Shown: positions 1-15,673 of the stretch, one piece after another
Position numbering within the stretch: the first letter of the stretch is position 1
How the letters are laid out: each line of letters opens with the position of its first letter
DNA from: Candidatus Woesearchaeota archaeon
GTDB taxonomy: Archaea > Nanobdellota > Nanobdellia > Woesearchaeales > GW2011-AR9
DNA length: 58,268 bases
Direction of reading: 5' to 3'
Assembly: GCA_018696595.1 (NCBI GenBank)
Contig: JABHQW010000007.1
Span: 1 to 58,268 of the forward strand
The notes under the pieces: generated by a model
What the model saw: the letters and a program-made list of their open reading frames with translations, nothing else
What the model was told of the DNA's origin: nothing
Databases searched by the model: none
Program-made: the position numbers and the translations under genes

Positions 1-132
1 ATTCTAAAACACCCTTAAAGAGGAAAACCTAAACTAAAAAGAAAGACTATGGTTGTACTGGTTCCTGCGTCATAACTTCAACCTTCGCTATGCTCAGGTT
101 GCTCCCCAACATGAAGTGGGGGACAACTTAAC
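1..132 (+). repeat. Right arm of a truncated cassette (unit 0), same family as the right arm of cassette b
   Basis: Near-identical to 1966-2045 (ttctaaaac.cccttaaagaggaaaacc...ctggttcctgcgtcataacttcaa). Hairpin at 103-123, then caacttaac. Confidence 0.85.
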
Positions 133-136
133 ATAC

Positions 137-1183
137 ATTATGCTTAATTTTCAAGTTACCTAAAAGAGAACAATCCTGTCGGATAATCTCTAAACTAATG
201 CGTTGCTGTCTTTAACAATGTAAAAATCTATAACGGCAAAAACAAAAATAAACTGGAGCTCTCTGAACTATTTCAAATACTTTAAAAAGTCTAAAAAATT
301 ACTTAGAGTATAATGGTCATACCAATCATAAGTGATATAATCAGCAATATATGGTTCTTTCAAACAGAGAGTGTTGTACCATTATTTAAAGAAATATCAA
401 TCATTATCCTAATCCTATTTGTTGTTGATTTTATTTTAGCGGTAGTTCTTGATCAAGTTTTAATGAGATCAAAATATCATATTCCAATAGGATTAACGTT
501 GTGGCCAATATTTGTAGTAATTTTAACATACTTGTTTTATTCCTTTGGTGGACTTCTTGGTTTTAATTTTTACCAATTTGAGTTTAATAATCTTCTTGGT
601 TATGCAATAAAACATTGGTGGGTATTTGTAGTTTTTTGGATAATGACTTTATTTGGAAATATTCCTTATTCACTTGGCAAGTTAACCAAAAATGAAAAAG
701 TAATGAACTTTTTTGGAACATTCTTTACTCCCATACATGAAGAGTTCTTTTTTCGCTATTTAGGCATAAATACTATCTATGTACTTACCAATTCTATTGA
801 AATTGCAATAATATTTTCCTCTATTGGTTTTACATTGATCCATCTACCAAATAAATCCGGCGATAAATGGGGAGGGCCCGTAAAAATAAATGCAACATTG
901 TTTATGGGATTTGCATTAGGAATTATTGCTGTTAAGTATGGCTTCATTTTCGCAATAGCAATCCACATACTTAATAATTTACTAGCATTTTATGTTCTTC
1001 CTAAAATATTTAAAGATGAACAAATTTAACTAAAAAGAGAGCCCCAACTAAACACTAAAACTATTACTTGTTTTTGCCTAAACTAAATGTGTTAAAGACT
1101 TATGACAGCAACGCTCTATGAACGGTAACTTGAAAACTTCTCGGCTACGCCTCGACCCCGACGTAAAGTCGGGGAAGCATAAC
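137..1183 (+). mobile_element. Cassette a (CAAX protease cargo)
   Basis: Ends attatgctt / aagcataac (8/9 complementary). Nested inverted blocks ttttcaagttacc/ggtaacttgaaaa, gcgttgctgtc/gacagcaacgc, ggcaaaaacaa/ttgtttttgcc. Arms ~137-264 and ~1036-1183. Confidence 0.8.
313..1029 (+). CDS. CPBP/CAAX (Abi) family intramembrane metalloprotease
   Basis: Multi-TM protein with HEEFFFR (EExxxR), FTLIH and HILNN (HxxxN) motifs. Confidence 0.85.
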   Translation: MVIPIISDIISNIWFFQTESVVPLFKEISIIILILFVVDFILAVVLDQVLMRSKYHIPIGLTLWPIFVVILTYLFYSFGGLLGFNFYQFEFNNLLGYAIKHWWVFVVFWIMTLFGNIPYSLGKLTKNEKVMNFFGTFFTPIHEEFFFRYLGINTIYVLTNSIEIAIIFSSIGFTLIHLPNKSGDKWGGPVKINATLFMGFALGIIAVKYGFIFAIAIHILNNLLAFYVLPKIFKDEQI

Positions 1184-1296
1184 ATCGTTAAGTTGAATTA
1201 TTACTCGGAACCAGTAAGTTACAAACACTTAAAAAATAAAAAAGGTTTTCCTATCTATTAAAAATTAGGGCGTTTGAAAAAAAAGAAAAAAATAAT

Positions 1297-1905
1297 TTAC
1301 TCATAAAAATCATAACCAATCAGATGTTCTTTTATTTCCTTCTTACATCCAAATTCAGTATTGATGCCCGGATATTTAGCATTGTTACATTCATCATCTG
1401 GAAGTAATTGACAATAATGTTCATCATGATCACAACAACAGATTGGTAATTCAGACTCTTCATAAAAATCATAACCCATCAGATGGTCTTCTATTTCCTT
1501 CTTACATTCAAATTCAGTATTACTGTCTGGATATTTGGCATTATTACATTCATCATTCGGAAGTAATTGGCAATAATGTTCATCATGGTCACAACAACAA
1601 ATTGGTAATTCCGTTGGTACAATTGGTTTCAGAATTCTCTTTAGTTTCATTTTATACGCTGTCTTCAAAAACTTATCTTTTGGAATGTTTCTTGGAATTG
1701 TTAGTGTTTTTTTGTACGCTTGTCCTGCTAAAGCACTAGTATCCTCTGATTCTACTGTTTCAATTGCCTGATCTAATTCTTCAGCAGATAATTCACTTAA
1801 TTCTGCTTCCAATTCTTCATCAGAGATTTCTTCAGTAGGAGTACATCCAACCAAAAACATAAAAACAACTAATAAGCCCAACATAACTAAAAATATTTTT
1901 TTCAT
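1297..1905 (-). CDS. Secreted lipoprotein with two 53-aa Cys-rich repeats
   Basis: GAGGTG RBS before the ATG at 1905; signal peptide ending LVGC; duplicated ELPICCCDHDEHYCQLLP...GYDFYE. Confidence 0.75.
   Translation of the reverse strand: MKKIFLVMLGLLVVFMFLVGCTPTEEISDEELEAELSELSAEELDQAIETVESEDTSALAGQAYKKTLTIPRNIPKDKFLKTAYKMKLKRILKPIVPTELPICCCDHDEHYCQLLPNDECNNAKYPDSNTEFECKKEIEDHLMGYDFYEESELPICCCDHDEHYCQLLPDDECNNAKYPGINTEFGCKKEIKEHLIGYDFYE
1300..1611 (-). repeat. Intragenic tandem duplication, 159-bp period
   Basis: 1300-1452 and 1459-1611 encode near-identical peptide repeats. Confidence 0.9.
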
Positions 1906-2249
1906 AATAAACACCTCATTTTAAGTATAAATAAAGAACTATTTAATCCTTAATAAATATTACTATTCTAAAACGCCCTTAAAGAGGAAAACCCTAACTT
2001 TAAAAAAAGACTATGTTTGTAACTGGTTCCTGCGTCATAACTTCAAACTTGCCCATGGCAAGTTTGATCAGGACATAAAATCCTGACAACTTAACATCGT
2101 TATCTTCAATTCTCTTTGAGTTTAAGGGGCACTAATAACTATTCTAAAAAAATTATAATGGGGCAAAAACAATAAATATAAAAACAAAAATAGGGGCTCT
2201 CTTGTACTCTATTAATAACTAAACTCACAGACTAATACTACAAATAAGT

Positions 2250-2477
2250 TTATCTTTTCTTCTTACGTACAACTTCTTTGACTGGATGGCTAAGTAATGT
2301 TGGAAATAATATTCTTCGCAATCCTGCTAGTACTAATAAAACCGCAACCCAGGCAACCCAACCATCAATTCCAGACCATTTTGGCCAAACAAATGCGTTG
2401 AGTAAAAGTAACAATCCCCATGCAAGCCTCTTCACACCAAGATTACGAATACATTTAATATCTTTACACATGTCCAT
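2250..2477 (-). CDS. Small membrane protein, similar in layout to 38750..38950
   Basis: AGGTGA RBS before MDMCK; two TM segments with LLLLNA..W and a basic tail. Confidence 0.6.
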   Translation of the reverse strand: MDMCKDIKCIRNLGVKRLAWGLLLLLNAFVWPKWSGIDGWVAWVAVLLVLAGLRRILFPTLLSHPVKEVVRKKKR

Positions 2478-2499
2478 ATGTTTCACCTCTTTTTTTAAA

Positions 2500-2691
2500 C
2501 TACCAAACAAAAATTTCAGCTAGTGTTGATCCTGTATACATAAAGTATGCAACGACTCCAGCTAGTACTAATACTGCAACAATTAATATCACACCAATTC
2601 CCATCCTTAAATTGGGCGCCACAAGATGTAATAGTATCCTAAGAACAATTAGCCCACCTAAAACCAAAGCTAATATCATTAACGGTCCCAT
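2500..2691 (-). CDS. Small two-TM membrane protein
   Basis: Hydrophobic ORF, co-oriented with its neighbours. Confidence 0.55.
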   Translation of the reverse strand: MGPLMILALVLGGLIVLRILLHLVAPNLRMGIGVILIVAVLVLAGVVAYFMYTGSTLAEIFVW

Positions 2692-2746
2692 TTTTAAAAT
2701 GATATCTTATATATTTATAAGTTTTCCTAAAAGCTTTTTCTGTGAC

Positions 2747-3562
2747 TTACGCTGTTTGTAATAATTTATCGTAACCACCATACGTTTTGTTTAACCAATT
2801 GACAAGTAGACGAGCTAGAAGAGTTAAGATTACACCTGTCGCAGGTAGAGGAAGAACTTTTCCGGTTACTGCTGCAGCTCCTATAACAACCCTTTCTCTT
2901 AATTCCTTCTTTTCAATTAGTTTGGTAATTGCTTCCATTTGAGGTTCATTTTTCTGTAAAAACAAATCAAATCTCTTGATTATTTGTTCCTCGCTTAAAA
3001 TTAGATTGAACAATTTATTCAATTTCCTTCTGGAATTTGGAGTTTTATAACTTCTTATGAATTTATTAATAATTTTATCTTCAAGTTGTCTGGTTGCTAT
3101 CAACTTTACAAGCATCTTTCGGTTTGATCTGAAAAAATAATAGATTTTTATCATGGCCTTATGCACTTCATCTCTTGAATACAAAGCAGGCATTAAGAGT
3201 AGCGAAAAATATTTTGCTTTGGCACGAACTTTATCTTTAAATGCCATATATGTTTCTAGCCCATATAACTCTCTATCAATAACACTAATTATTACCCTTA
3301 GAATCATATTGGAAGCAAGTGAGTATTTTTCCAATTTTGTACTATGTTCAAGTAAATCATCCCAACTTTCAGATTTTTTTAAATCGAGGGCATATTCTAC
3401 TCTTTTAACATCGTTTCTTTCAAGAATATTAATAAGAAGTTTTAATGTCCTTTCGGTAAAAGTTCCTACCTCTAACTTAGCCCCAATAACATCCAAATCA
3501 TGTTCTGAAAGAGCTTCTGGAGAATATAATGTTCTAATGTCGCTATCTGAAACTTGGCTCAT
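2747..3562 (-). CDS. Hypothetical protein (helical, C-terminal hydrophobic segment)
   Basis: 271-aa ORF, no recognised motif. Confidence 0.7.
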   Translation of the reverse strand: MSQVSDSDIRTLYSPEALSEHDLDVIGAKLEVGTFTERTLKLLINILERNDVKRVEYALDLKKSESWDDLLEHSTKLEKYSLASNMILRVIISVIDRELYGLETYMAFKDKVRAKAKYFSLLLMPALYSRDEVHKAMIKIYYFFRSNRKMLVKLIATRQLEDKIINKFIRSYKTPNSRRKLNKLFNLILSEEQIIKRFDLFLQKNEPQMEAITKLIEKKELRERVVIGAAAVTGKVLPLPATGVILTLLARLLVNWLNKTYGGYDKLLQTA

Positions 3563-3783
3563 TATTCTGAATAATTATATTATAATTAATAAACATTTTG
3601 TAAACAAACAAGAGAGTCCCTTAATCTAACTTAAACTAAAAGTGTTTTTGCCCCCGGTCTAAATCTCATTTTAAAGGTATTAGTGCCCTGTATTCTAGAC
3701 TGCTATTGCAGTAATCTATACAAACTCAAAGAAAACTACTCGCTGCGCTCGTCCCCTACATAAAGTAGGAGGAAGATAACATC

Positions 3784-4775
3784 GTTATGTGCAATAAATT
3801 TTAGCGCGCTTTAAGAAGTGAACTTCTACTCGATTTCTTTTTTCTTTCACTGAGGTCTGCTCTTGTCATTTTTCTTTCTACTACTTCTTTTCTAGTTACT
3901 CCTGTTTTTTCTTTAAGTTCCTTAAAAGAAACAGAACCAAATTCACATCTGCTTATTGGAACGTCTTCTCCAATCCAAAATTCAGGAACTTTAAAATTGC
4001 CCTTGTACTTATCTATTCTTACTATTGATTTGTAATATTTTGTAAAAAGGAGATTGATGAAGAATTTTTTAAATTCAAGATAATTTTTTAATTTTGGTTT
4101 CTTTTTCATGAACATATCTTTTTCAAATGCTTCAGACAATTTAACCCAATCTTTTCCAAATTTCTTTTTCAAAATAGGCTTATGATATTTTTCATCCCAA
4201 TATTTTTGCTCTAAAACATAACAATGTTTTGCAATCTTATCTGTGATTTTAAACATAATATATTTATTACCTATTTTTGAAAAAATTGAAGCAATATAAT
4301 TAGGATCATTTGAACCTTTTAACCATCCATCTTGAAATTTCTTTGAAAAAGCCAAAATATAACCTTCATTATTAAAAAATTCCTCAAGTAATTTGTTTTT
4401 ATATTTAAATTCTATATCTCTATAACAACTTTCATAATTTTCTTCATCATCTTGTTCTTTTTTATACAGATCTATCAATTTTTTATTTTGGTGTTGATAT
4501 GCTTGTAATCTTCTAATTTCGGTTTTACTTAAAAAATCTTCAGGGCAATTTTCTAAAATCCAATCATAAGCATATGTTTTTGCAAAAGAAGTAGCCAAGA
4601 GCAGACCATCCTTCTTAATCTCTTTAATAAATCGAGTATAATGATAAAAAGTTTTAATTCTTCTCATAATCAAAAGAAGATTATTAGACTATAATAACTT
4701 TTCTATAAGCGCGCTAAAATTTACTTGCTCCGCATACATGCTACGCACCCCTACATAAAGTAGGGGGCACATAAC
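3784..4775 (+). mobile_element. Cassette d (ART-like cargo)
   Basis: Ends gttatgtgc / gcacataac (9/9). Inverted block taaattttagcgcgct / agcgcgctaaaattta; the cargo stop codon lies inside the left arm. Confidence 0.85.
3801..4673 (-). CDS. Hypothetical protein, possible ADP-ribosyltransferase-like fold
   Basis: N-terminal FYHYT...I..DGLL and C-terminal PEFWI...VP resemble the DarT/ART motif layout (pattern recognition only). Confidence 0.45.
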   Translation of the reverse strand: MIMRRIKTFYHYTRFIKEIKKDGLLLATSFAKTYAYDWILENCPEDFLSKTEIRRLQAYQHQNKKLIDLYKKEQDDEENYESCYRDIEFKYKNKLLEEFFNNEGYILAFSKKFQDGWLKGSNDPNYIASIFSKIGNKYIMFKITDKIAKHCYVLEQKYWDEKYHKPILKKKFGKDWVKLSEAFEKDMFMKKKPKLKNYLEFKKFFINLLFTKYYKSIVRIDKYKGNFKVPEFWIGEDVPISRCEFGSVSFKELKEKTGVTRKEVVERKMTRADLSERKKKSSRSSLLKAR

Positions 4776-4778
4776 ATC

Positions 4779-5587
4779 GTTAAGTTTAAGTTTCTTTTTT
4801 CCTGAATTTCGCTTTTATGTACTTTTTTACGTATAAGTCGATGATAAATCTCCATATCCATAATAAAATAAATAAATGAAGAATCTTGCGAAATCCTGAC
4901 CAGTGCTCCTACTCAAATTAGAACAGGGATAGCTCAATAAACCTGAAAACTTTAGAAACTTATTTAAATGATTTTTTATTACTTAACTGTATGAATGATT
5001 GTTTGTTTTGTAAGATTGTAAAAAAAGAAATCCCAATCACAAAAATATATGAAGATAAGAAAGTTCTTGCTATATTGGACATCCAACCAGTCAATGATGG
5101 TCACGTTTTAATAATTCCAAAGAAGCACGCAGTTCTTATTACAGAATTAGATGATAATTTAACTTCACACCTATTCAAAGTAGCAAAGAAAATAAACATT
5201 TCTTTAAGAAAATCAGGGCTTAAGTGTGAAGGTGTTAATTATTTTCTCGCTGATGGTGAGGCAGCAATGCAAGAAGTACCCCATGTACATTTACACGTAT
5301 TTCCAAGATATAAGAAAGATGGTTTTGGTTTGAAATTCGCGAAAAAATACTTTAAATTACCATCAAGAAAAAAACTTGACATCATAGCAAAAAAAATCAA
5401 AAATAATAAATAAATGAAGATTCTGAGCTATCCCTGAACTTGTTCTATTTGGAGCCCTGTTCATCGGAAAAAAGAAACCTCTGCGTAACCGGGTACTCAT
5501 TAGTTTCTTATATTATCGCCTTCGGCGAATTTCAACACTAATGAGCACTCCGTTACTTGCGGGAGGATGAACCTCCCGAAACTTAAC
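4779..5587 (+). mobile_element. Cassette e (HIT cargo)
   Basis: Ends gttaagttt / aaacttaac (9/9). Inverted blocks tttctttttcc/ggaaaaaagaaa and cagggatagctca/tgagctatccctg. Confidence 0.85.
4991..5413 (+). CDS. hit: HIT family nucleotide hydrolase (Hint-like)
   Basis: CLFCKI N-terminus, GHVLIIPK, HVHLHVFPR histidine triad. Confidence 0.95.
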   Translation: MNDCLFCKIVKKEIPITKIYEDKKVLAILDIQPVNDGHVLIIPKKHAVLITELDDNLTSHLFKVAKKINISLRKSGLKCEGVNYFLADGEAAMQEVPHVHLHVFPRYKKDGFGLKFAKKYFKLPSRKKLDIIAKKIKNNK

Positions 5588-5778
5588 ATCGTTAAGCTTA
5601 ATTTTCAAGTTACCTAGACGAGAACAATCCTGTCGAATACTCTCTAAACTAATGCGTTGCTGTCTTTAACAATATAAAACTCTATAACGGCAAAAACAAT
5701 AATTATGATAAAAATAAAATTGGGGACTCTCTTAAAAAATGTAGAAAAATATATTAACTTAGTAAAATTGACAAAACT

Positions 5779-5961
5779 ATGCGACTAAATGAAATTAAAA
5801 CATTAACAGGTTACATTATAGCTGTTGTTTATTTTCTAATAGTAATTTTTGTTATAATTCTAAACATTAGGTCTCCAATATTACACATTGTGATTGTTTC
5901 ATCAATTGTTATTGGGGTTGTTTTGTGGTTCTTCTACCTTTGGTTGGTTAAGTATTTTTGA
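5779..5961 (+). CDS. Small membrane protein
   Basis: Two hydrophobic helices; overlaps the convergent ORF by 60 bp. Confidence 0.4.
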   Translation: MRLNEIKTLTGYIIAVVYFLIVIFVIILNIRSPILHIVIVSSIVIGVVLWFFYLWLVKYF

Positions 5962-6201
5962 AATAAGAAAACCAATTCCTGCACCAATTCCAAATCCTAC
6001 AATTAACACAACTATAATCCACAAGATACCTGGAGGAAAGCCAAGAATTGATACAGTTCCAGCCATTCCTGATGTTTCACCAGCCACAAATTTCTGTAAC
6101 TCTAAATGTTTCATATATGAATAAATAAACAAAATCACTTCAAATATTAAAGCAACAACAATTCCAATAATTAACCAGAGTTTATTTTTCATTTTAATCA
6201 T
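5902..6201 (-). CDS. Small two-TM membrane protein
   Basis: Hydrophobic ORF with plausible composition. Confidence 0.6.
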   Translation of the reverse strand: MIKMKNKLWLIIGIVVALIFEVILFIYSYMKHLELQKFVAGETSGMAGTVSILGFPPGILWIIVVLIVGFGIGAGIGFLISKILNQPKVEEPQNNPNNN

Positions 6202-6603
6202 CTCTTTTTTATTATTTCTATGAAATTACTTTAATCTTTTTAAAATTAACTCTTCTCAATGAACGAAAGAGCCCCCCAAACACTAAAAAACTAATTGTTT
6301 TTGCCTTTAAACTAACTAAACTAAGAACTATGACAGCAACGCACTATGCACGGTAACTTGAAAACTTCTCGCTAACGCTCGACCTGGACGTAAAGTCCAG
6401 GAAGCTTAACATCGTTAAGTTCAATATTTTTACCGCCTTGTAGGTTCACACAATGTTCCCGAAAATCTTTTGCACTGGCACCTTTGCATAGACGAGAACA
6501 ACAAACGTGAGGAAATTAAAACTTCCTATAACATTGTCTATGCGATTTCATTTCATTACACCCAAATTCACTAATAGGCAGGGGGCGGAGAGTTATTATT
6601 AAA

Positions 6604-7146
6604 CTATCTAAGAGAACTAACACATTCAACAAATTCTGGAATAACTTTTATTCCAACTAACTTAACCCCACTTAACAAGTCAATAGCCGTATCAATATTC
6701 TTATTACACTGATTAATCCTAATTTCAAAATTATTCCTCATCTTCAAAAAATCATCATTTAGAATATCAAAATCATTTCTAGTTCTTTCTAATTTCTTCT
6801 CAATCCGCTCTTTAAAGACAATAATCTTTTTTACTTCCTTAACGAGTTCTTCCCATTTTTCATCAATTAAAGTATCAACAATCTCTTCTACTTTTTCGTA
6901 GATCATTTGCTCTGTTGATATATTGCCGACTTCAGTAAAATAATCTCCCTGCTCCTGAAAATTCTCATCAAAATCTTCCTCTTCATTTTGAAAAGTTTCA
7001 TCCGGTTGTCCAAAAGCCCAGTTAATTTCCTCTTCACTGTAACCTTTCGTAATCAATTCATCAAAAACATATTCGTCAGATAAACCATAATTTCTTAAAT
7101 TTTTTACTTCCAGAAGCAAATTATTGTAATAGTCCCTCTCCGACAT
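6604..7146 (-). CDS. Acidic coiled-coil hypothetical protein (DPANN-type)
   Basis: GGAGG RBS before MSERDYY; EEIVDTLIDEKWEELVKE segment recalls a conserved DPANN hypothetical family. Confidence 0.65.
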   Translation of the reverse strand: MSERDYYNNLLLEVKNLRNYGLSDEYVFDELITKGYSEEEINWAFGQPDETFQNEEEDFDENFQEQGDYFTEVGNISTEQMIYEKVEEIVDTLIDEKWEELVKEVKKIIVFKERIEKKLERTRNDFDILNDDFLKMRNNFEIRINQCNKNIDTAIDLLSGVKLVGIKVIPEFVECVSSLR

Positions 7147-7218
7147 CTGAAACCCTCCACCATCTGTCAAGATGTTCCCATTTTTCATCTTCATCAAACA
7201 ATCCAAAATTTTCTGAAA

Positions 7219-7383
7219 TCATTTTCTTATTTTCAACTCTTTTATTGCTTCTCTTAGCAGCTTACGGAGAGACTTTCTTTTGCTTTGCACAGGAGCAGGA
7301 CTTTTTTCTACTTCTCTTATTTCACCATAACTAAAATCTGGGTCTTTCTCTATTTTTGGGATATGCTCAAAATATTGGTTCAT
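7219..7383 (-). CDS. Small hypothetical protein, 54 aa (not in ORF track)
   Basis: MNQYFEHIPKIEKDP...LREAIKELKIRK; overlaps the end of the upstream ORF. Confidence 0.4.
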   Translation of the reverse strand: MNQYFEHIPKIEKDPDFSYGEIREVEKSPAPVQSKRKSLRKLLREAIKELKIRK

Positions 7384-7525
7384 TTTCCAATACCTCTTGA
7401 TCTTCAGGAATTCCTTTCAGTAATCTTTCCCAATTCTCTTCACGCAGATCATTCCACTCTTCATCGTAATCATAGTCTTCCCTTGATGCCCGCCACTTTA
7501 ATTTTTGCTTACGAGATCGAGCCAT
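7367..7525 (-). CDS. Small protein with basic N-terminus and acidic C-terminus
   Basis: GGGGTGA RBS before MARSRKQKLK. Confidence 0.55.
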   Translation of the reverse strand: MARSRKQKLKWRASREDYDYDEEWNDLREENWERLLKGIPEDQEVLENEPIF

Positions 7526-7606
7526 GATAATCACCCCTTTAAGCCTAACAGTAAAAGAAGTATAAAATTCTGTGGTAGAAATCACCAACTTTTTTGGGAA
7601 AAATAG

Positions 7607-7903
7607 TTAACCATAAAGTGCAATCCCCCCTAAAATAAAGATATAACAAATCAACCAAAGAACATAAGTGATGATAATTGGCTTTTTCTTATGTATGCTT
7701 CCGTAGGCTATCCAAACAAGTGCAATTAATATGTAGGAAAGCCAAGCAATCGCTGATACTCCACTCGCATTTTTTCCAATCCAAATTTTAGTTATTTGAG
7801 GAATCGTCATCGCCAATCCAAAAAAACCGGAAGAATAAATCAAAGTGTCAATTAGTTTTTCTTTTTTCGCTAGAAAAGTATATCTTGTTTGGTTTTCTTT
7901 CAT
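7607..7903 (-). CDS. SemiSWEET / PQ-loop family transporter
   Basis: TIPQITKIWIGKNASGVS motif, three TM helices. Confidence 0.85.
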   Translation of the reverse strand: MKENQTRYTFLAKKEKLIDTLIYSSGFFGLAMTIPQITKIWIGKNASGVSAIAWLSYILIALVWIAYGSIHKKKPIIITYVLWLICYIFILGGIALYG

Positions 7904-7975
7904 TTTCCATGCTAACCATAAATTATATGTTGAAAAGAAAAAAGATATTTGGGAATAAAAAATTGTCTTAAAGAC

Positions 7976-8071
7976 TTATTTTTTCTTCCCTTTCTTTGCT
8001 CCTTTTTTGGATTTCTTACCAGAAGCTTCTGCTCCAGCTGCAATCTTTGCTTTCCTTGATTTAGTTGCCAT
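7976..8071 (-). CDS. Lys-rich micro-protein, 31 aa
   Basis: MATKSRKAKIAAGAEASGKKSKKGAKKGKKK; GGAGGT RBS. Confidence 0.55.
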   Translation of the reverse strand: MATKSRKAKIAAGAEASGKKSKKGAKKGKKK

Positions 8072-8090
8072 TATATTTTACCTCCATTAT

Positions 8091-8258
8091 TCAGTCATAA
8101 TCATACTTGTAAGCCCAATCGTCATCATCTGGGTTGGTCTTCTTTCTGTTAGAACCTTCAAGGTTTCCCTCTTCGTAATCTTCTAACTCTGCAGAATCTT
8201 CTCCAAACCATCCAATGAAACTAAAGTTCTCATCTTTAAATTCTTCAGTATCTTTCAT
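8091..8258 (-). CDS. Acidic micro-protein, 55 aa
   Basis: MKDTEEFKDENF...DDDDWAYKYDYD; GGTGAGGGG RBS. Confidence 0.55.
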   Translation of the reverse strand: MKDTEEFKDENFSFIGWFGEDSAELEDYEEGNLEGSNRKKTNPDDDDWAYKYDYD

Positions 8259-8325
8259 TTTCCCCTCACCATCTAATTGAAAAAAAGAAAAAAAATTTAA
8301 AACAGAGATTTCCTCTCAAAGAGAG

Positions 8326-8358
8326 TCACTTTTTCTTTTTTCCTTTCTTTTTAGCCAT
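8326..8358 (-). CDS. Lys-rich peptide, 10 aa
   Basis: MAKKKGKKKK; GAGGTG RBS. Confidence 0.4.
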   Translation of the reverse strand: MAKKKGKKKK

Positions 8359-8386
8359 TGTGGAATCCACCTCATCAAGATTTTTT

Positions 8387-8464
8387 TTACTTCTTTTTTT
8401 TCTTCTTTCCTTTTTTTTTACCTTCTTTAGACTCAGCTGCAGCTTTCTTTTTCTTTTTGGCCAT
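8387..8464 (-). CDS. Lys-rich micro-protein, 25 aa
   Basis: MAKKKKKAAAESKEGKKKGKKKKKK; GAGGTGA RBS. Confidence 0.55.
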   Translation of the reverse strand: MAKKKKKAAAESKEGKKKGKKKKKK

Positions 8465-8481
8465 TTATTTCACCTCATTTT

Positions 8482-8592
8482 TTAATAATCCTTGTCCCAA
8501 CGATCATCATCATCAGGATCAGGTTCTTCTTTGTCCTCATCTTCAAAATCTTCGTCATTACCTTCATTTTTCTTCTTCTTTCTTGGCGGCAT
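8482..8592 (-). CDS. Basic/acidic micro-protein, 36 aa
   Basis: MPPRKKKKNEGNDEDFEDEDKEEPDPDDDDRWDKDY; GGAGGT RBS. Confidence 0.55.
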   Translation of the reverse strand: MPPRKKKKNEGNDEDFEDEDKEEPDPDDDDRWDKDY

Positions 8593-8605
8593 TTTTTGTA
8601 CCTCC

Positions 8606-8737
8606 TTACAGTATTGCTCCGCAATAAGGGCAAACTAAAGAAAGCCCTTCCATTTTTGTTTCATCTACAAACACTTTACACTTCGGACAATAACAACCCT
8701 GATGGCTTTTTTTTGAAGAGGTGTTTTGGCTTGTCAT
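8606..8737 (-). CDS. Zinc-ribbon micro-protein, 43 aa
   Basis: CPKC...CPYC; missed by the ORF track. Confidence 0.65.
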   Translation of the reverse strand: MTSQNTSSKKSHQGCYCPKCKVFVDETKMEGLSLVCPYCGAIL

Positions 8738-8820
8738 TGTTGTTCAGAAAGAAAGAAAAGTACCTATATAATCTTGCGGTAGGTGAAATAAACCAAAAAA
8801 AGAAAATAAGTTTAAACTAA

Positions 8821-9378
8821 TTATTTCTTTTTCAGGAAGAACTCGTTAAGCGGGAATTCTTTCTTGTCAAGAATTTCATAAAGCAGACCTATCGGTGATT
8901 CTGTGATTATCTTCTCAGTGGAAAATGGATAAATATGTAAGATTTCAACTTCTCTGGAAAACTTCGTCTGCATTTTAGCAACGTATCTATCCATTTGATC
9001 TAAATCCTTAAAGCCCATAATCAATATATGGCTCGCTTTAGGCTCTGTGACACGATAAGCATTAATCACGTAGGGGATTTGCTTAATCCTCTGTGAAATC
9101 TGTTCATCACTATGAGAATCCCAGACTTCTGAAGTTAGCTTAATGATGAGCATCGCCATTACTTTAATCCCTAATTTCCTTAAATCAAGAATAGGCTGAT
9201 AGCCTTTAATTATACCTTTATCTTCTAACTTATGACGAATCTTAAAAACAGCTTGAGGAGAAAGACCCATCTTTTTAGCTATTTCTGTATCGGGCAATTT
9301 AGCAGACTGGATAATCGTCTTTAAAACTTCCTGATCATTTCTTGTTAAGTGGGGGTTCTCTGGGTCTGGCTGCTTCAT
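8821..9378 (-). CDS. Lrp/AsnC family transcriptional regulator
   Basis: HTH TEIAKKMGLSPQAVFKIRHKLEDKGIIKGY followed by a RAM-type domain. Confidence 0.9.
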   Translation of the reverse strand: MKQPDPENPHLTRNDQEVLKTIIQSAKLPDTEIAKKMGLSPQAVFKIRHKLEDKGIIKGYQPILDLRKLGIKVMAMLIIKLTSEVWDSHSDEQISQRIKQIPYVINAYRVTEPKASHILIMGFKDLDQMDRYVAKMQTKFSREVEILHIYPFSTEKIITESPIGLLYEILDKKEFPLNEFFLKKK

Positions 9379-9698
9379 AGTAAGCTAAAATAACTAACAA
9401 CTTTAAAAGCATTTCTAAGAAATTTAAATAACTCTCCGCCCCATGGTTTTACTCTGCTTTGCAGTAATTGATATGCCTATTAGTGAACTACGGTGCCAGT
9501 GCGATTTTCGGCGGTAAAAATACTCTGCGATTTAATGTTCTCCGTGAGGAATTAATAAAAAAATTCTAGTCTCACTCCGAACTTAAATCTTGGTCTCCCC
9601 ACTCCGCAAACATATCACTGTAAAAGTAGATGTTTAAATCGAAAGAACCCGCTTCTGTAAGTCGCTATAATTCCCTAAATGTTTGCTCGTAAGTCGAC

Positions 9699-9810
9699 GA
9701 ACTTAACAGGAATTATGCGGTTGCGTTACTCAGGCTCCCCTCTAAAGGGGTCGCCCTGCGTTACTCACCCAAATGGCTTCGCCACTTCGCATAATTCCAC
9801 CGTTATACGT
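9699..9810 (+). repeat. Junction J7 with a 94-nt attC-like palindromic insert
   Basis: gaacttaac-aggaattatgcg...cgcataattccacc-gttatacgt; near-identical to 12271-12373. Confidence 0.8.
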
Positions 9811-10122
9811 AATTTTTTATTTGCCTTGCCTTTGGCAACTTTCTTAGCTCTTTTCCTTTCCCATGCAAAGCTCAAGTAAAAACCGAAAAGAAAGCTTCGG
9901 GCTACGTCGGGAATGTTTAACGTTGGTACTTTCGTTTAGTCGGATAAAACAAAAAGAATTCAATTGAAACTGAATATAACATTGACTAAACGGCTTCGCT
10001 TCGCTACGACCCAAATTTTTTTAATGAATCTAAATCAAGTAATAATTACAAAATACTATTAATTTCAGATGAATTTATAAACTAATCCTGAAATTTTTAC
10101 GCTTAAATTGACAAATAAAGAA

Positions 10123-11172
10123 ATGGAATCATTGAACTTTTTGATAACTAATGCAAAAGCACAAACTTTTCCAGGAACAGTCTACAGCTTAAAGCAAGAA
10201 TTTAAAGGAAAAATAATTTCTGTATCTTATAAAGAAAACGCAATAGGTGCATTCCTTTCTGATAAAAATTTTATAATCTCAAAAAACGATTCTTCTCAAT
10301 ACATCAGAGAAATTTTGTCCATTTGTAAAGAAGAAAAAATCGATGTAATCATCCCACTTAGTATTGAAGAAAGAATTATTTTTCTTAAAAATAAACAACT
10401 GTTTGATGAAAATGAAATTAAGATATTCTCTTCAAGTATTGAATCAATTGAGAATGCAGAAAATAAAGTTTTTCTTTATGAACTTTGTAAGAAAAATAAT
10501 ATTCTAACTCCTTATTTTTATGTTGTTAATAATTATACTGACTTAAAAGAAAAAGCGTTATTATTAGGTTATCCACAGAAAAAAGTAATCATCAAACCAA
10601 TTAATTCTTGCGGTTCGAGAGGTTTAAGAATATTAAATAAAAAAGCTGATTACAAAAAAAACTTTTATAATATTAGAGCAGATTACACTGAAATTACTTT
10701 AAGTGATCTTAGAAATATTATTGGAAGTAAATTTAGAGATTTAATGCTTTGTGAATATATCTCGGGTGAAGAATATACCGTCGACTGTTTGCGTTTAACT
10801 GAACATCATTTTTCTTTTCCTAGAATAAGAAAAGAAGTAAAAAATGGATTAACATATGTTGGCCAGATGAGTAAGCATGAAGAAATAATTCAATCAAGTC
10901 AAAAATTAGCAAATATTTTGGATTTAACAACCGTATTTGGTTTCCAGTTTAGATTGAATGAGATGAATAAGCCTGTAATCATTGATTGCAACCCTCGAAT
11001 TCAAGGAACAATGATTATGAGCACTTTAGCAGAAGCAAATGTAATAGCTGCTGGGATTAAGATTTTGTTAAATAAAACTAAAGTAGAATTTAATCCTGAT
11101 TGGAACATGACATATTATAGATTCTGGGGTGGTGTTTCTGTTGGTAAAACGAAAAAAATAGTTAATTTTTAA
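10123..11172 (+). CDS. ATP-grasp domain protein (carbamoyl-phosphate-synthase-like)
   Basis: IIKPINSCGSRG, CEYISGEEYTVD, IIDCNPRIQG. Confidence 0.85.
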   Translation: MESLNFLITNAKAQTFPGTVYSLKQEFKGKIISVSYKENAIGAFLSDKNFIISKNDSSQYIREILSICKEEKIDVIIPLSIEERIIFLKNKQLFDENEIKIFSSSIESIENAENKVFLYELCKKNNILTPYFYVVNNYTDLKEKALLLGYPQKKVIIKPINSCGSRGLRILNKKADYKKNFYNIRADYTEITLSDLRNIIGSKFRDLMLCEYISGEEYTVDCLRLTEHHFSFPRIRKEVKNGLTYVGQMSKHEEIIQSSQKLANILDLTTVFGFQFRLNEMNKPVIIDCNPRIQGTMIMSTLAEANVIAAGIKILLNKTKVEFNPDWNMTYYRFWGGVSVGKTKKIVNF

Positions 11173-12106
11173 CTATTCCCAGATGGATGATTCTTGATCC
11201 AGCATAATTAACTGGATTAGTGTTTTTTCCGATAATAATTCCATTTTCAGGAGAATGATATTCTTTTATAACTTTTCCAAAGATATCACTTACAATTGCA
11301 ATTTTTTCTCCCTTTTTTACATTAGATCTCAACCCTGGTAAAACATTTAAAATTCCACCTCCTTTAGTGTTAATTCTTTGCGAACTAGTGCAAATAGTTG
11401 GATTAGTATTAATTGAAGTTTTTCCATCAATAATATTTAGATAAATTAAGCAGTTAACTATTCCTTTAACCGCATTAGAAATCACTTCATTTTGAAATTT
11501 GTTTGGGTCCCCCAATTCTAGAGTAATCGCTATTATTCCATTTTCATTTGCCTGTCTTCTCAGGGTTCCTTTTCCACCTATTGAATTAAGGATAATATCT
11601 GAATTTAGTAGTAATGACAAATCGTAAATAACTTTATTTTTCAAATTAGCTCTAACATAAAAAGAATTCACATTTCCAATTCTCGCTGTATGTAGATCAA
11701 GAATATAATCAAAATTTTTTATAACTTTATTAAAAATATTGAACGCATAAATACTACTCTCTGTGCCATTTTCCTTTCCAGGAAATTTATAATTCAAATC
11801 TCTTCCGTCAATAAAATTTCTTTCTTTTCTTAAAAAACCAGGCACATTAATTACTGGCACTCCTACAATAATTCCTTTTAATTTATTTAAATCAATTTCA
11901 TTAAACACTTTATGGATTACCAAAAGACCATTTAATTCATCTCCATGAACTAGTGCTGTTAATCCAAATGTTGGTCCCTTTTCTTTTCCTTTTAATACCA
12001 TAACTGGAACACTAATATCATGACCCAAACTATTTGAAACTATCTTTAACCAGCAACTTGTTAATCCTACTGGAAAATTATTAAAATCCAATTCTTTTAT
12101 CTCCAT
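11162..12106 (-). CDS. Succinylglutamate desuccinylase/aspartoacylase family (M14) protein
   Basis: HGDELNG, DLNYKFPG, LDLHT, TLELG. Confidence 0.9.
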   Translation of the reverse strand: MEIKELDFNNFPVGLTSCWLKIVSNSLGHDISVPVMVLKGKEKGPTFGLTALVHGDELNGLLVIHKVFNEIDLNKLKGIIVGVPVINVPGFLRKERNFIDGRDLNYKFPGKENGTESSIYAFNIFNKVIKNFDYILDLHTARIGNVNSFYVRANLKNKVIYDLSLLLNSDIILNSIGGKGTLRRQANENGIIAITLELGDPNKFQNEVISNAVKGIVNCLIYLNIIDGKTSINTNPTICTSSQRINTKGGGILNVLPGLRSNVKKGEKIAIVSDIFGKVIKEYHSPENGIIIGKNTNPVNYAGSRIIHLGIVKN

Positions 12107-12270
12107 GAAGAGAGGTTTTATCCATAACTATAAAAATTTAATTGAATAAACCACATATATAATTGGTTTTACTCTGCTACGCAGTTATTGATAACGATTC
12201 ATTAAAAAAACTACAGTACCAACTACATTCCCGACAAATAAAAAACTCCGCAGACCATCAAAGGTCTGCT

Positions 12271-12373
12271 ACGTATAACAGGAATTATGCGGTTGCGTTA
12301 CTCGGGGCATCAAAGCCCCTGCGTTACTCACCCAAATGGCTTCGCCACTTCGCATAATTCCAACGTTATGCTC
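12271..12373 (+). repeat. Junction J8 with an 85-nt attC-like palindromic insert
   Basis: acgtataac-aggaattatgcg...cgcataattccaac-gttatgctc. Confidence 0.8.
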
Positions 12374-12950
12374 AATTAATCTTTTCCTCTTTTCCAAAAA
12401 CATCTTTATTGCCAACTTTTGCTTTCTCAACTGTTATCTTAATCCTCTTAATTCTAGTTTCTTCACGTTTCCCACGTAAGATCCATCTATAAAAAACCTT
12501 TTTTAGAGAAGCAGAGTACTTTTCAAAATTATCTTTAGCTTTCTTATTTTTATCTAAAGCTTTCTTTAATTCAACAGGTATATCTGGATTTTTTGGAATT
12601 CCAAAATCATGTGTGGGCTTCATCAGACCTTCTTTGTAAAATTTCAAGCCTGAAGGAGTCATTTTTCCACGTTCAATCAACTGTTTACCATACCCGAGAG
12701 TGTTATCACTCCATTTACTATTTTTATTCCTTCTAGAAAATGTTCTGATATACCTTTCTTCATCTAATTTTTTAAGTGTAGTATCAATCCAACCAAAACA
12801 AATCGCTTCTTCCATTAATTCTCTGTGAGAAGGAGATGACTTACCTGTATGTTTCTTGTAAACTATAACTAAAACTTTATCTTCTTTATCATGATTCGTC
12901 ACTAACCACTTTCTAAAATCTATTCTATTGAATGCAGTTATTGTCTTCAT
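12372..12950 (-). CDS. YdeI/OmpD-associated family protein
   Basis: FRKWL, EEAICFGWID, F..R...S.WS..N and IPVELKKAL motifs; GGTGA RBS. Confidence 0.9.
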   Translation of the reverse strand: MKTITAFNRIDFRKWLVTNHDKEDKVLVIVYKKHTGKSSPSHRELMEEAICFGWIDTTLKKLDEERYIRTFSRRNKNSKWSDNTLGYGKQLIERGKMTPSGLKFYKEGLMKPTHDFGIPKNPDIPVELKKALDKNKKAKDNFEKYSASLKKVFYRWILRGKREETRIKRIKITVEKAKVGNKDVFGKEEKIN

Positions 12951-13072
12951 AGTATCACCATTAATCTTTGATATCATTTAAACTTTATGGGTTTTTCTGT
13001 TTCAATATTTTATATTGGTTCAATACTCCACTTTTTGAAATCCCCTTATCCTTCAGACATATAGACCCCCCA

Positions 13073-13093
13073 GCACATAACATCATTAAGTTC
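13073..13093 (+). repeat. Degenerate junction J9
   Basis: gcacataac-atc-attaagttc(aat). Confidence 0.65.
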
Positions 13094-13139
13094 AATTTAA
13101 ACACACATCTTTATAACTGAGAAGCATATTTTGCAGTAT

Positions 13140-14390
13140 ATGGATACATCATTTAAAGATCTTAATCTGAACCCGCAATTAGAAAGAGCATTAACTAAAT
13201 TAGGATATAAAGTACCAACCCCGATTCAGTTGAAAGCAATCCCGGGTTTATTAGAAGGTAAGGACCTAATAGGTATTGCACAAACAGGCACTGGTAAAAC
13301 TGCAGCATTTGTATTACCAATACTGCACCGGATGGTTGAAAAATATCCTAGAAAAATTAGAACTTTAGTAGTTGCACCAACACGAGAACTAGCAGCACAG
13401 ATTGGAGAAAGTTTTACCCAATATGGAGAGTTCTTGAAGTTTAAACACACAGTTATCTTTGGTGGTGTTAAACAAGGAAAACAAGTTCAAGCATTAACTA
13501 AAGGAGTAGACATTCTTGTAGCAACACCAGGAAGATTATTAGATTTAATAGATCAAAGAAAATTAACTCTTAAAAATGTAGATTTTTTTGTCCTTGATGA
13601 AGCAGACAGAATGTTAGACATGGGATTCATTAATGATATTAAAAAAATAATTTCCAGATTACCTCATAAAAGACAATCACTATTCTTCTCAGCAACAATG
13701 TCTCCACAAATCAACAAACTTGCAAAGAGTTTACTTAATAACCCAATTCATGTTGAAGTTACGCCTCAAGCAACTACGGTAGAATTGATCAAACAAGAAG
13801 TCTTTTTTGTTGACCAAAAAGCTAAAGAACAGTTATTGCTTAAACTTTTGAAACATGAACACCTTACAAGTATTCTAATTTTTACTAGAACAAAACATCG
13901 AGCAAACAAAGTTGCTGTTTTCCTTAATAAGAATAATATTTCTGCCGATGCAATTCATGGCAACAAATCACAAAATGCAAGAACAAAAGCAATTAAAGAT
14001 TTTAAAACAGGTAAGATTAAAGTTTTAGTTGCAACTGATATTGCTGCACGAGGGATAGACATTCCAGAAATTTCTCATGTGATAAATTTTGAACTTCCTA
14101 ACGAACCAGAAAGTTATGTTCACCGGATTGGTAGAACTGCCAGAGCTGGAGCTAAAGGAACAGCATTTTCATTTTGTGCTGCTGAAGAAAGAAGTTATCT
14201 TCACAGTATTGAAAGATTGATCAAACAAAACATTGAAGTTATGGATCACACTTTTCATTCAGAGACTGCAAAAAACGCAGTAGGTGCAGCAGCCAAACCA
14301 GCACCAAAACAAAGAGGATCATTTAGATCAAAAAGCAAAAAATCATTTTCTAAAAAGTTTAAGCCCAAACACCGTTTTAAAAGAAGATAG
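13140..14390 (+). CDS. rhlE: DEAD-box RNA helicase (RhlE-like)
   Basis: AQTGTGKT, PTRELA, DEAD, SAT, HRIGRTAR. Confidence 0.92.
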   Translation: MDTSFKDLNLNPQLERALTKLGYKVPTPIQLKAIPGLLEGKDLIGIAQTGTGKTAAFVLPILHRMVEKYPRKIRTLVVAPTRELAAQIGESFTQYGEFLKFKHTVIFGGVKQGKQVQALTKGVDILVATPGRLLDLIDQRKLTLKNVDFFVLDEADRMLDMGFINDIKKIISRLPHKRQSLFFSATMSPQINKLAKSLLNNPIHVEVTPQATTVELIKQEVFFVDQKAKEQLLLKLLKHEHLTSILIFTRTKHRANKVAVFLNKNNISADAIHGNKSQNARTKAIKDFKTGKIKVLVATDIAARGIDIPEISHVINFELPNEPESYVHRIGRTARAGAKGTAFSFCAAEERSYLHSIERLIKQNIEVMDHTFHSETAKNAVGAAAKPAPKQRGSFRSKSKKSFSKKFKPKHRFKRR

Positions 14391-14468
14391 TAATAGAATT
14401 AACTAAGGAGATAAACTGATTTATATTTTCTTTTTAAGATTATCTAGTGTGGGGGAGGGTCAGAATTA

Positions 14469-14492
14469 GCCCATAACGTTGTTAAGCTCAAT
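14469..14492 (+). repeat. Degenerate junction J10
   Basis: gcccataac-gtt-gttaagctcaat; right half fits the junction consensus. Confidence 0.5.
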
Positions 14493-14521
14493 CGTGAAAA
14501 AAAATAAAAAATAAAAAAAAA

Positions 14522-15298
14522 TTATTTTCTACAGGCAACAATGGTTTCTCTTACACATTCACTCATTAAATCATAAGCCCCATTTTCTATGAGAGAATCA
14601 TGCAATTTACCAGTAAAACTTCCAGGTCCAGCAACTTGACCATATATTTCATCACCGGATGTTCCCATGAGTAAACGTTTTCCAATTGCCATTAAAGTTG
14701 CCCCATACATAGCTCTTGCATCTTCTTCATTCAATCCATCTAAAGAATCTATTTTGCGTTCTATTCCTTTAGCCATCAAACCAGTATCACAAGCAATCCA
14801 AGTACGATCAGCCAAAGCTTTTTCATCAACTTCTTTAGCTGAACCTCCAAAGATGTACTTTACTATTGCCTCATCTTCTTCGGTGGTTTTAGAACCAAGC
14901 GCATATGCTGCTATTTCATCAGATACAAAAATGCCAGTCATCACTCTGCAAACTCTTGATTGGTCAAGAATTGATTCTATATTTGCAATACTCTTTCCTG
15001 CGGCAAGAGAAATTACCAGTTTATCTTTAGCAGAGTATTTTATCTCTTCACAGACATCATCAAGAGAATTTGGTTTTAAACCCAGAATTACTACATCAGA
15101 ATTTTTAACAGCATAAACATTGTTATTGCTAACTTCAATGCCATATTGTTGTTGTAACTTTTCCAATCTTTCTAAGTTTCTTCTTGCTGCAATTATTCTT
15201 TGATGTCCTTTTTTCTTCAAGGCATCAATCACTTTGGTTCCTAAGTATCCCGCACCAACTACAGAAATAGTCTTATCGCTGACAAGGAATACAATCAT
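14522..15298 (-). CDS. Pyrroline-5-carboxylate reductase-like oxidoreductase
   Basis: VVGAGYLG Rossmann motif, SDVVILGLKP, ISLAAG, VAGPGSFT; divergent C-terminus. Confidence 0.7.
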   Translation of the reverse strand: MIVFLVSDKTISVVGAGYLGTKVIDALKKKGHQRIIAARRNLERLEKLQQQYGIEVSNNNVYAVKNSDVVILGLKPNSLDDVCEEIKYSAKDKLVISLAAGKSIANIESILDQSRVCRVMTGIFVSDEIAAYALGSKTTEEDEAIVKYIFGGSAKEVDEKALADRTWIACDTGLMAKGIERKIDSLDGLNEEDARAMYGATLMAIGKRLLMGTSGDEIYGQVAGPGSFTGKLHDSLIENGAYDLMSECVRETIVACRK

Positions 15299-15673
15299 CG
15301 GTATTCCCGAAAGCTGTTTCGCTTCCCATTCCTAATTTTTCCATTCTTTGTTCTAATTCCATTTTATTTTTCCTCCAAGTTTTTTTGAGGAGGGACCAGA
15401 AACATTTTTGTTTCTCGTTTCCCCCAAGTTTTGTTTTTTAGAAATATCCTAATAACTTCTTAAGAAGACAGGATAAAAAAATAATGGAGACAATTATTGT
15501 CCCGGTGTTGGCTGAAGAGAACTAAATCTATTTAAATCAGAATTTGCAATTTCAAAGTTCATTCTCTTCATCATAATTACAAGTAAGAAGAGAATCTATT
15601 TAAAACTTTCTTAATTTTTTTTAGAATACTACACAATCAAAAAATATTTAAATAACCTCTTATCTCTTTCTAG

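Follow-up and report, generated by a model that had tools for sequence, protein, structure and literature searches.

A woesearchaeal gene-cassette array with recombination sites split at the hairpin apex: an integron-like system with a probable XerA-type recombinase

What kind of recombination site results when long inverted arms lie inside each gene cassette, and where would such a site be opened? The question is raised by positions 1 to ~14490 of the window, by which we mean the entire 58-kb contig C2 (58268 nucleotides, nt) of a Candidatus Woesearchaeota archaeon (genome G000; 1.19-Mb, 32% G+C, 97% complete, 8 contigs). Genes such as CDC48 and Nre agree with a place of this tiny marine organism among the DPANN archaea, whose members are very small. 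In this region an array of units is joined through the 11-nt core TAAC-ATC-GTTA, and the first 14.5 kb of the window make up the greater part of a gene-cassette array of an Xer-type integron-like system. A preliminary description of the same DNA had proposed an inside-out site, with inverted arms within each cassette, the crossover at the apex of a hairpin and the triplet ATC at the junctions. The cassette system that emerges from our analysis is integron-like and has a differently built site; its structure is well supported, its mechanism unproven. The explanation that we find best overall, and rather probable, is a cassette system with hairpin sites split at their apex, in which the enzyme is likely of XerA type.

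The position of the crossover can be read from the tips, the short sequences with which every unit begins and ends next to the core. In 34/46 units, positions 5-9 of the left tip are fully complementary to the right tip of the same unit (mean 4.37 of 5), compared with 4% perfect matches and a mean of 2.60 for random pairs. When the tips opposed across a junction are compared in the same way, perfect pairing is seen in 0/32 cases and the mean of 2.69 equals chance. Because tips pair within a cassette and not across the junction, the crossover has to fall where the right tip of a cassette gives way to the left tip of its successor, inside the 11-nt core. Boundaries of arm families agree with this placement. 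Cassettes z and b, and likewise a, f and a cassette of another genome (G010), share arms with differing cargo, and the likeness ends at the core; positions 1-104 of z, for example, are 81-88% like the right arm of b (1965-2069). Within the family of a, f and the G010 cassette there are compensatory changes of tip and hairpin, as in the tips GTTAAGCTT/AAGCTTAAC of f and (G)TTATGCTT/AAGCATAAC of a. The array of G010 holds one cassette in two copies with different neighbours, and in G045, a genome of the same genus, a junction 100% identical to 12240-12375 is followed by another cassette.

Junctions adjacent to the recombinase gene in relatives narrow the position further. They keep the right half of the site, GTTAWG...AAT, and have ATATAWR-GA in place of the hairpin and TAAC-ATC. 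As the right half alone is kept there, the crossover should fall at or just to the right of ATC, near the integron position G|TT. Tip phasing, arm-family boundaries and these half-sites thus bear out the earlier placement, and support a crossover inside TAAC-ATC-GTTA, which is the apex of the hairpin expected of a circular cassette. The topology of a split site is thereby shown: the mobile unit runs from core to core, and its ends are the halves of one long branched palindrome.

The arms themselves were examined by minimum-energy folding of right arm + ATC + left arm, the in-silico circular junction, with DNA parameters. The control was a 10 x 10 matrix of every left-right arm combination of ten units, from which row and column effects were removed. 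Cognate residuals of cassettes a-h are -23, -26, -27, -35, -32, -19, -7 and -29 kcal/mol, the non-cognate standard deviation being 4.3; in other words, cognate arms gain 19-35 kcal/mol in a-f and h, and 7 in g. Off the diagonal, strong cells are limited to a x f, two cassettes with related arms (93% and 88% alike). The weak pairing of g (-7 kcal/mol) refers to 200-nt arms, and with 300-nt arms 80 inter-arm pairs are formed. In the minimum-energy folds, helices connect 138-264 with 1036-1182 in a, 2099-2216 with 3585-3780 in c, 4779-4977 with 5391-5587 in e, 6414-6613 with 9414-9707 in g, and 9802-9960 with 12090-12279 in h; units b, d and f fold likewise. There are 56-81 inter-arm pairs per unit, nested and interrupted by one-sided insertions, and the helices extend to the borders of the open reading frames (ORFs). 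The complementary blocks listed in the preliminary description are therefore real and lie nearly where it had placed them, and its expectation of better complementarity within cassettes than between them holds. It had let the arms end at about 12279, and units i (12364-13081) and j (13085-14477) indeed lack arm pairing in the same fold matrix.

The same preference for cognate arms is found outside the genus. After removal of the 9-nt tips, the cognate fold beats all six non-cognate controls in 37/43 cassettes from 14 loci of other genera, with mean energies of -42.0 kcal/mol for cognate and -24.2 for non-cognate folds. Outside shared arm families, arm sequences are unrelated between cassettes. 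A preference for one folding strand was considered and rejected: bottom-strand folds are ~2 kcal/mol better in 37/46 cassettes and have more G-T pairs, and non-cognate controls share this bias (105/138), as expected from base composition.

A second structured element stands directly 5´ of the right tip at every ATC-type junction. It is a hairpin of 7 base pairs (bp) with a 5-nt loop. Over 72 distinct sites, which were selected by the core alone, each of its seven positions is Watson-Crick paired in 81-90% of cases with 3-4 pair types, and slid registers reach 4-50%. The loop is ATAAA or GTAAA in 51 of these sites. For the tips and for the small hairpin covariation is established; for the long arms it is not. 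That both small elements covary argues that a single-stranded or extruded form is under selection. Genome-wide, exact cores having both the covarying hairpin and the AAT context are confined to this array. One isolated exact core with AAT context and without the 7-bp hairpin lies remote from arrays (G000:C3:356380-356398, - strand); it could represent a secondary site or else match by chance. Where the array of G051 begins we observed a 38-nt mini-unit between two cores, composed of tip, 7-bp hairpin and tip only (L022, G051:C2, 15900-15960, - strand).

Not all junctions are of the ATC type, and the preliminary description was mistaken in placing the triplet at each of them. Those at 9704-9803 and 12276-12365 hold instead a forked hairpin of 82-92 nt, flanked by TAAC and GTTA, and that at 129-141 is degenerate. 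The former two, both on the + strand like all junctions and cassettes of the window, are called Y-type here. In the copy at 9704-9803, TAAC is followed by an 11-bp stem (GGAATTATGCG / CGCATAATTCC) around a forked structure and then by ACC-GTTA; the copy at 12276-12365 is the same except for its central mini-hairpin. Together with one junction on contig C8 they make three array junctions that fold locally as R box, unpaired spacer, L box and variable forked terminal structure, like classical attC. The local fold of 9704-9803 has a z of -3.1 on the + strand and -4.3 on the - strand, and Y-type modules were found at array junctions only. Folding of the ATC-type junction in window 1140-1200 revealed no local structure, and the six exact and the degenerate ATC-type junctions hold 3 nt between AAC and GTT. 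The ATC-type junction looks like an attC-like design in which everything distal to the R box has shrunk to three bases. By this resemblance, Y-type junctions would tie the system to integron-type sites.

Which enzyme could act on such sites? The core with AAT context is present in 55/100 genomes of the same DPANN family and in 40/58 genera, at ~0 matches for a reversed-pattern control; in a phylum-wide sample it was found in 25/41 genomes of the family versus 19/360 elsewhere. At least 16 genomes have a gene for a tyrosine recombinase of 274-282 amino acids (aa) located 0.4-7 kb from the first core and always transcribed away from the array. In these relatives a TATA box and an attI-like junction, together with direct repeats of GTCCAGTG, occupy the interval between this gene and the first cassette, and the centres of these recombinase-adjacent junctions (GA, TC) differ from the cassette core. 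The orthologue in G000 (C3:265133-265957) is the only full-length Xer-type gene found in the genome. It scores 232.3 bits over residues 14-265 against the archaeal XerA equivalog model NF040815 (cut-off 220), and among solved structures it is closest to XerA 5hxy. With the integron-integrase model TIGR02249 it stays below the threshold (193.7 bits, cut-off 265), matching in two pieces with positions 182-235 missing, and the match to IntI4 (2a3v) comes likewise in two stretches. The sub-threshold score results from lack of the integron-specific insertion, the I2 helix around patch III. A canonical integron integrase was sought in the genome and none was found. We suggest that the XerA-type recombinase is probably the catalyst of cassette recombination. 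Many relatives have a second Xer paralogue. In G000, a 206-aa tyrosine recombinase made of the catalytic domain only was noticed behind a 400-nt non-coding stretch (G000:C6:89616-90236; L002:1453-2073).

The last junction of the array, an attI-like sequence at 14414-14492 (+), ends ...CCCATAAC-GTT-GTTAAGCTCAAT and has a degenerate core copy at 14474. It shares 81-84% identity with the sequence immediately preceding the XerA-type gene (C3:265035-265115, opposite strand). This attI-like copy (GTCTAGTG...GGGTCAGAATTAGCC.ATAAC) thus stands at the far array end, behind the DEAD-box helicase gene and in array orientation, which points to an earlier site-specific rearrangement or to a second platform since lost. 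Synteny with G051 was compared, and the rearrangement separating the recombinase gene on C3 from the attI-like copy could not be reconstructed from it.

Traces of the movement of single cassettes were sought in four seawater metagenome runs, whose assembled contigs only were compared with window 1-16000. In one run, a 1056-nt contig corresponds to 138-1190, that is to cassette a with ends at the cores, and has a depth of 171 versus ~5-15 for neighbouring cassettes, an excess of about 30-fold. A variant of cassette e with its HIT protein (4772-5485) was observed in the same run at a depth of ~114, the rest of the array having ~5-15. Cassettes a and e are far commoner in that seawater community than the array of this strain. 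Contig depth, contig ends that coincide with cores and the differing cassette sets of same-genus genomes give indirect support to the circulation of single cassettes. Some joints appeared to go back or to skip units and were considered as possible circles; they are explained by arm-family similarity (z/b, a/f) or by short sides.

We propose the following model. The non-coding flanks of a cassette, ~100-280 nt per side, are the halves of one long imperfect branched palindrome. In a circular cassette the halves would meet as right arm - TAAC-ATC-GTTA - left arm, and a single strand or an extruded cruciform would then fold into one long hairpin. Presumed parts of this hairpin are the 3-nt ATC loop, the 9-bp cassette-specific tip, a three-way junction with the 7-bp hairpin (loop RTRAA) and the long lower stem. 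A tyrosine recombinase would open the circle inside the core, most likely at or beside G|TTA, a position homologous to the integron crossover. The site would thereby be split at its apex and the halves would finish on opposite sides of the gene. The likely enzyme would be the XerA-type recombinase without integron-specific domain. The inside-out topology of the preliminary description is thus retained; the different excision/integration or cassette-creation chemistry that it had deduced is not supported, as nothing observed here calls for more than ordinary tyrosine-recombinase chemistry by the XerA-type enzyme whose gene flanks such arrays in relatives.

Is the folded form the actual substrate? 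We incline to think so, for cognate tips, covarying hairpin and arms would have no role in duplex recombination, and the use of a folded phage strand by Xer enzymes is known. Several observations weigh against this model. The enzyme has no I2 helix, a feature linked to recombination of single strands in integron integrases (PMC7790495). An ATC-closed hairpin gives only one recombinase-binding arm beside the cleavage site, and in duplex form the junction has two proper arms around an invariant centre (9-3-9), as suits recombination between double strands. Unlike in classical integrons, both strands carry ORFs (26:52). The apparent preference for a folding strand is accounted for by base composition, and the long lower stems are near-invariant (61/75 pairs) in the sole arm family with three members, that of a, f and the G010 cassette. 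The circular joint was absent from the contigs of the four seawater runs, and in G000 the recombinase gene (C3) and the array (C8 end to C2 start) lie on separate contigs.

Some of these points lead to the most serious of the other explanations, plain double-strand recombination of Xer/dif type. Here the 21-bp duplex junction (9-bp arm, ATC, 9-bp arm) would be a simple two-arm site, and long arms and small hairpin would serve other ends, such as cruciform marking of free circles, priming of their replication or insulation, or would be relics of cassette formation. An XerA-type recombinase without the integron-specific insertion suits such a reaction, as do the almost invariant central ATC, expected of an overlap region, the common orientation of all cores within an array, and the two properly inverted arms of the duplex junction, of which the ATC hairpin offers one. 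Yet duplex recombination gives no reason for the cassette-specific complementarity of tips (34/46 versus 4% by chance) and leaves the covarying 7-bp hairpin and the cognate arms in 37/43 cassettes unexplained. The recombinase-adjacent centres GA and TC differ from the cassette core, so that overlap homology with it would be missing. We regard duplex recombination, and equally the accessory roles that it assigns to the arms, as unlikely, though deserving of serious attention.

Two further explanations were considered. If the units were foldback elements or resembled miniature inverted-repeat transposable elements (MITEs), with long terminal inverted repeats and insertion next to TAAC where an older copy ends, a transposase, for example a single-strand transposase of the HUH/Y1 type, would move them in place of the Xer-type enzyme. 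The terminal inverted repeats are there, a hairpin followed by the junction 9 nt later resembles HUH nicking sites, and the array in G000 has no adjacent recombinase. However, no Y1 HUH transposase (TnpA; PF01797) was found in the 97% complete genome, where the same search gave matches in control genomes; arms that are unrelated between cassettes could not be read as sequence by a transposase; target duplications were not seen; and in at least 16 relatives the arrays adjoin a divergent Xer-type gene and an attI-like site. This makes transposition very improbable. The arms could also act in RNA, as processing or stabilising stems round each gene in a long array transcript, comparable to the processing stems of rRNA. 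Long-range stems do flank each unit, and covariation alone cannot separate RNA from DNA. On the other side stand the use of both strands by ORFs, which are often convergent inside a single cassette, the existence of ORF-less cassettes (167-369 nt, in the arrays of G083, G010 and G086), and an Rfam search of 1-15000 with zero matches. Moreover, the stems stop exactly at the recombination core, which also delimits presence and absence of cassettes between genomes. A function in RNA is for these reasons hardly credible.

For the split-site model itself a bolder geometry can be imagined, which we consider doubtful and present as speculation. The core is near-palindromic, and two cores around a cassette on one strand of the array can therefore pair. 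The gene would then lie inside the recombination site. Cassette tips and long arms would form one duplex arm, the TAAC/GTTA boxes of the neighbours would form the other, and the two ATC triplets would be the unpaired centre between them. This would be a complete two-arm site whose "loop" is the entire cassette, placed like the variable loop of attC. A recombinase dimer would cut both cores and swap the ends, comparably to a hairpin telomere resolvase, yielding a single-stranded circle closed at the ATC apex and a resealed array. If this were true, an Xer-type enzyme without I2 would run a single-strand cassette system with synapsis by base pairing, either as an independent invention or as the ancestral state of integrons.

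As to the array in G000, it passes beyond the start of C2 and continues at the end of C8, a contig which bears array junctions; C8 very likely joins the start of C2. The whole array then lies between a KamA-like gene (C8) and the helicase gene (C2). Its first part (G000:C8:87793-89720; L026:15793-17721) starts behind the KamA-like radical-SAM gene with a forked classical-type junction, followed by one cassette with a 423-aa ORF of no known family and by a TAAC-AAACA-TTA junction at the contig end. No junctions were found when they were sought past 14492 up to 58268. On C2, cassette z (1-132) is truncated by the contig start and retains the right arm only, with hairpin at 104-122 and right tip at 124-132. 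The degenerate core that follows, TAAC-ATACA-TTA (129-141), is similar to the variant at the end of C8.

Cassette a (138-1183; left arm 138-264, right arm 1036-1183, hairpin 1156-1174) carries an ORF for an Rce1-like CAAX protease (313-1029, +). The a/b junction at 1180-1190 is an exact core, TAAC-ATC-GTTA; five further identical cores (2092-2102, 3777-3787, 4772-4782, 5584-5594 and 6407-6417) bring the exact copies to six altogether. Cassette b (1187-2095; arms 1187-1275 and 1971-2095) has an ORF at 1297-1914 (-). In this ORF we noticed a 152-nt tandem duplication (1301-1611, 90% identity) encoding a repeated Cys- and Asp-rich module, which Pfam did not match. Cassette c (2099-3780; arms 2099-2216 and 3585-3780) has ORFs at 2250-2510 (-) and 2747-3562 (-). 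Cassette d (3784-4775) has arms from 3784 and to 4775, with strong blocks pairing 3795-3811 with 4707-4723, and an ORF at 3801-4673 (-). A HIT-family ORF (4991-5413, +) is the cargo of cassette e (4779-5587; arms 4779-4977 and 5391-5587). Cassette f (5591-6410; arms 5591-5733 and 6267-6410) belongs to the arm family of a and has cargo unlike it.

Cassette g (6414-9707; arms 6414-6613 and 9414-9707) has several ORFs, all on the - strand, including one for a MarR-type helix-turn-helix protein (8821-9378). The cassette measures 3.3 kb, and 6604-9378 holds a run of small - strand frames, several of them very Lys-rich, in addition to that for the MarR-type protein; instead of a single-gene cassette, it could represent a module of plasmid- or virus-like kind that was captured. 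In cassette h (9802-12279; arms 9802-9960 and 12090-12279, hairpin 12251-12270) a convergent pair is found, ATP-grasp (10108-11172, +) and AstE/AspA-like (11162-12106, -). This pair of an ATP-grasp ligase and an AstE/AspA-type zinc hydrolase looks like a small module for peptide or amino-acid modification moving as one cassette. Unit i (12364-13081) contains an OmdA/YdeI-like ORF (12372-12977, -), and its tips are mismatched at 2/5 variable positions. An 84% copy of it exists behind other cassettes in the array of G045. After the degenerate core TAAC-ATC-ATTA (13078-13088) comes the DEAD-box helicase gene (13131-14390, +), contained in unit j (13085-14477).

Taken together, these data describe a widespread archaeal cassette system with a probable Xer-type enzyme lacking the integron domain, in which every gene lies between the two halves of the site that belongs to it. 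Searches of the published literature yielded integrons of archaea and bacterial elements that exploit Xer, and no account of archaeal cassette arrays linked to Xer enzymes or of archaeal sites with split hairpins. The present analysis contributes a control matrix of arms across cassettes, a test of phase that places the crossover, the family-wide numbers, the occurrence of ATC-type and classical-type junctions in one array, and depth evidence at contig level for the circulation of single cassettes. If the folded form is the substrate, there would be a second route to cassette recombination that is structure-specific, and it would become testable whether integrons arose from Xer-type enzymes. 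The system may also explain why many archaeal cassette arrays seem integrase-less; integron-finding software which depends on the IntI domain and on attC hairpins that fold locally would probably overlook arrays of this kind. A large part of the accessory genes of these small genomes resides in such arrays.

How does the system compare with those already known? In CTX-phi, a folded single-stranded attP is recombined by XerCD, an Xer enzyme without I2 helix, with exchange of one strand pair. Xer/dif systems and Xer-exploiting mobile elements (IMEX) share with the present one an enzyme of the Xer family and tandem arrays at one chromosomal site; different are the bare cassettes without replication or phage genes and the 9-3-9 core in place of 11-6-11. 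Archaeal XerA, which serves in chromosome dimer resolution, acts at one dif site of the 11-6-11 kind in the region of the terminus. TLC-phi gives the context for elements of this kind (PMC9226527). The pdif modules of Acinetobacter plasmids are bounded by 28-bp duplex sites of alternating orientation (PMC7399989). They, too, are gene modules between Xer-type sites and are thought to move as units. They have no long arms, whereas the modules described here end in cognate sequences able to form a hairpin, and their cores are all repeated in one direction. Telomere resolvases such as TelK and ResT resemble tyrosine recombinases, cut at the centre of a palindrome and leave the strands closed at the hairpin apex, their products being linear replicons. 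Geometrically they may be the nearest known case of a crossover at the apex, a resemblance that we offer as an idea only; a protelomerase-type protein was not identified here, and the products here are cassettes.

A further comparison is with integrons, which include sedentary chromosomal integrons and CALINs and are the textbook case of sites recognised as folded single strands. Classical attC, a local imperfect hairpin R''-L''...L'-R' between cassettes, is cut 6 nt from the hairpin base, at G|TT of R', and the recognition of folded strands is attributed to a domain exclusive to integron integrases. In both systems cassettes that mostly hold one or two genes follow each other head to tail, the boxes are RYYYAAC / GTTRRRY-like, and a cassette begins with bases that pair with the 3´ box at its own end. 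A recombinase gene that diverges from the array and is accompanied by an attI-like site with direct repeats is likewise common to both, though here it was seen in relatives. Common are also sites defined by structure with cassette-specific sequence, and three junctions of the present array, a minority, have the local fold of R box, spacer, L box and forked loop. Ghaly et al. 2022 (PMC9668308) described integrons of archaea in which IntI and attC are canonical. The array considered here differs in its XerA-type recombinase without IntI-specific domain, in ORFs on both strands, in the extra conserved 7-bp hairpin, and in having mostly ATC alone between AAC and GTT. It differs also in that the partner of the 3´ arm lies at the opposite cassette end, over 100-280 nt compared with 6 nt in attC, and that the crossover falls at the apex and not near the base. 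When a hairpin site is cut in its 3´ arm, the stretch from cut to base moves to the other end of the inserted element, be it the 6 nt of attC or the 100-280 nt seen here. The relation of this cassette system to integrons is a difference of degree as well as of kind.

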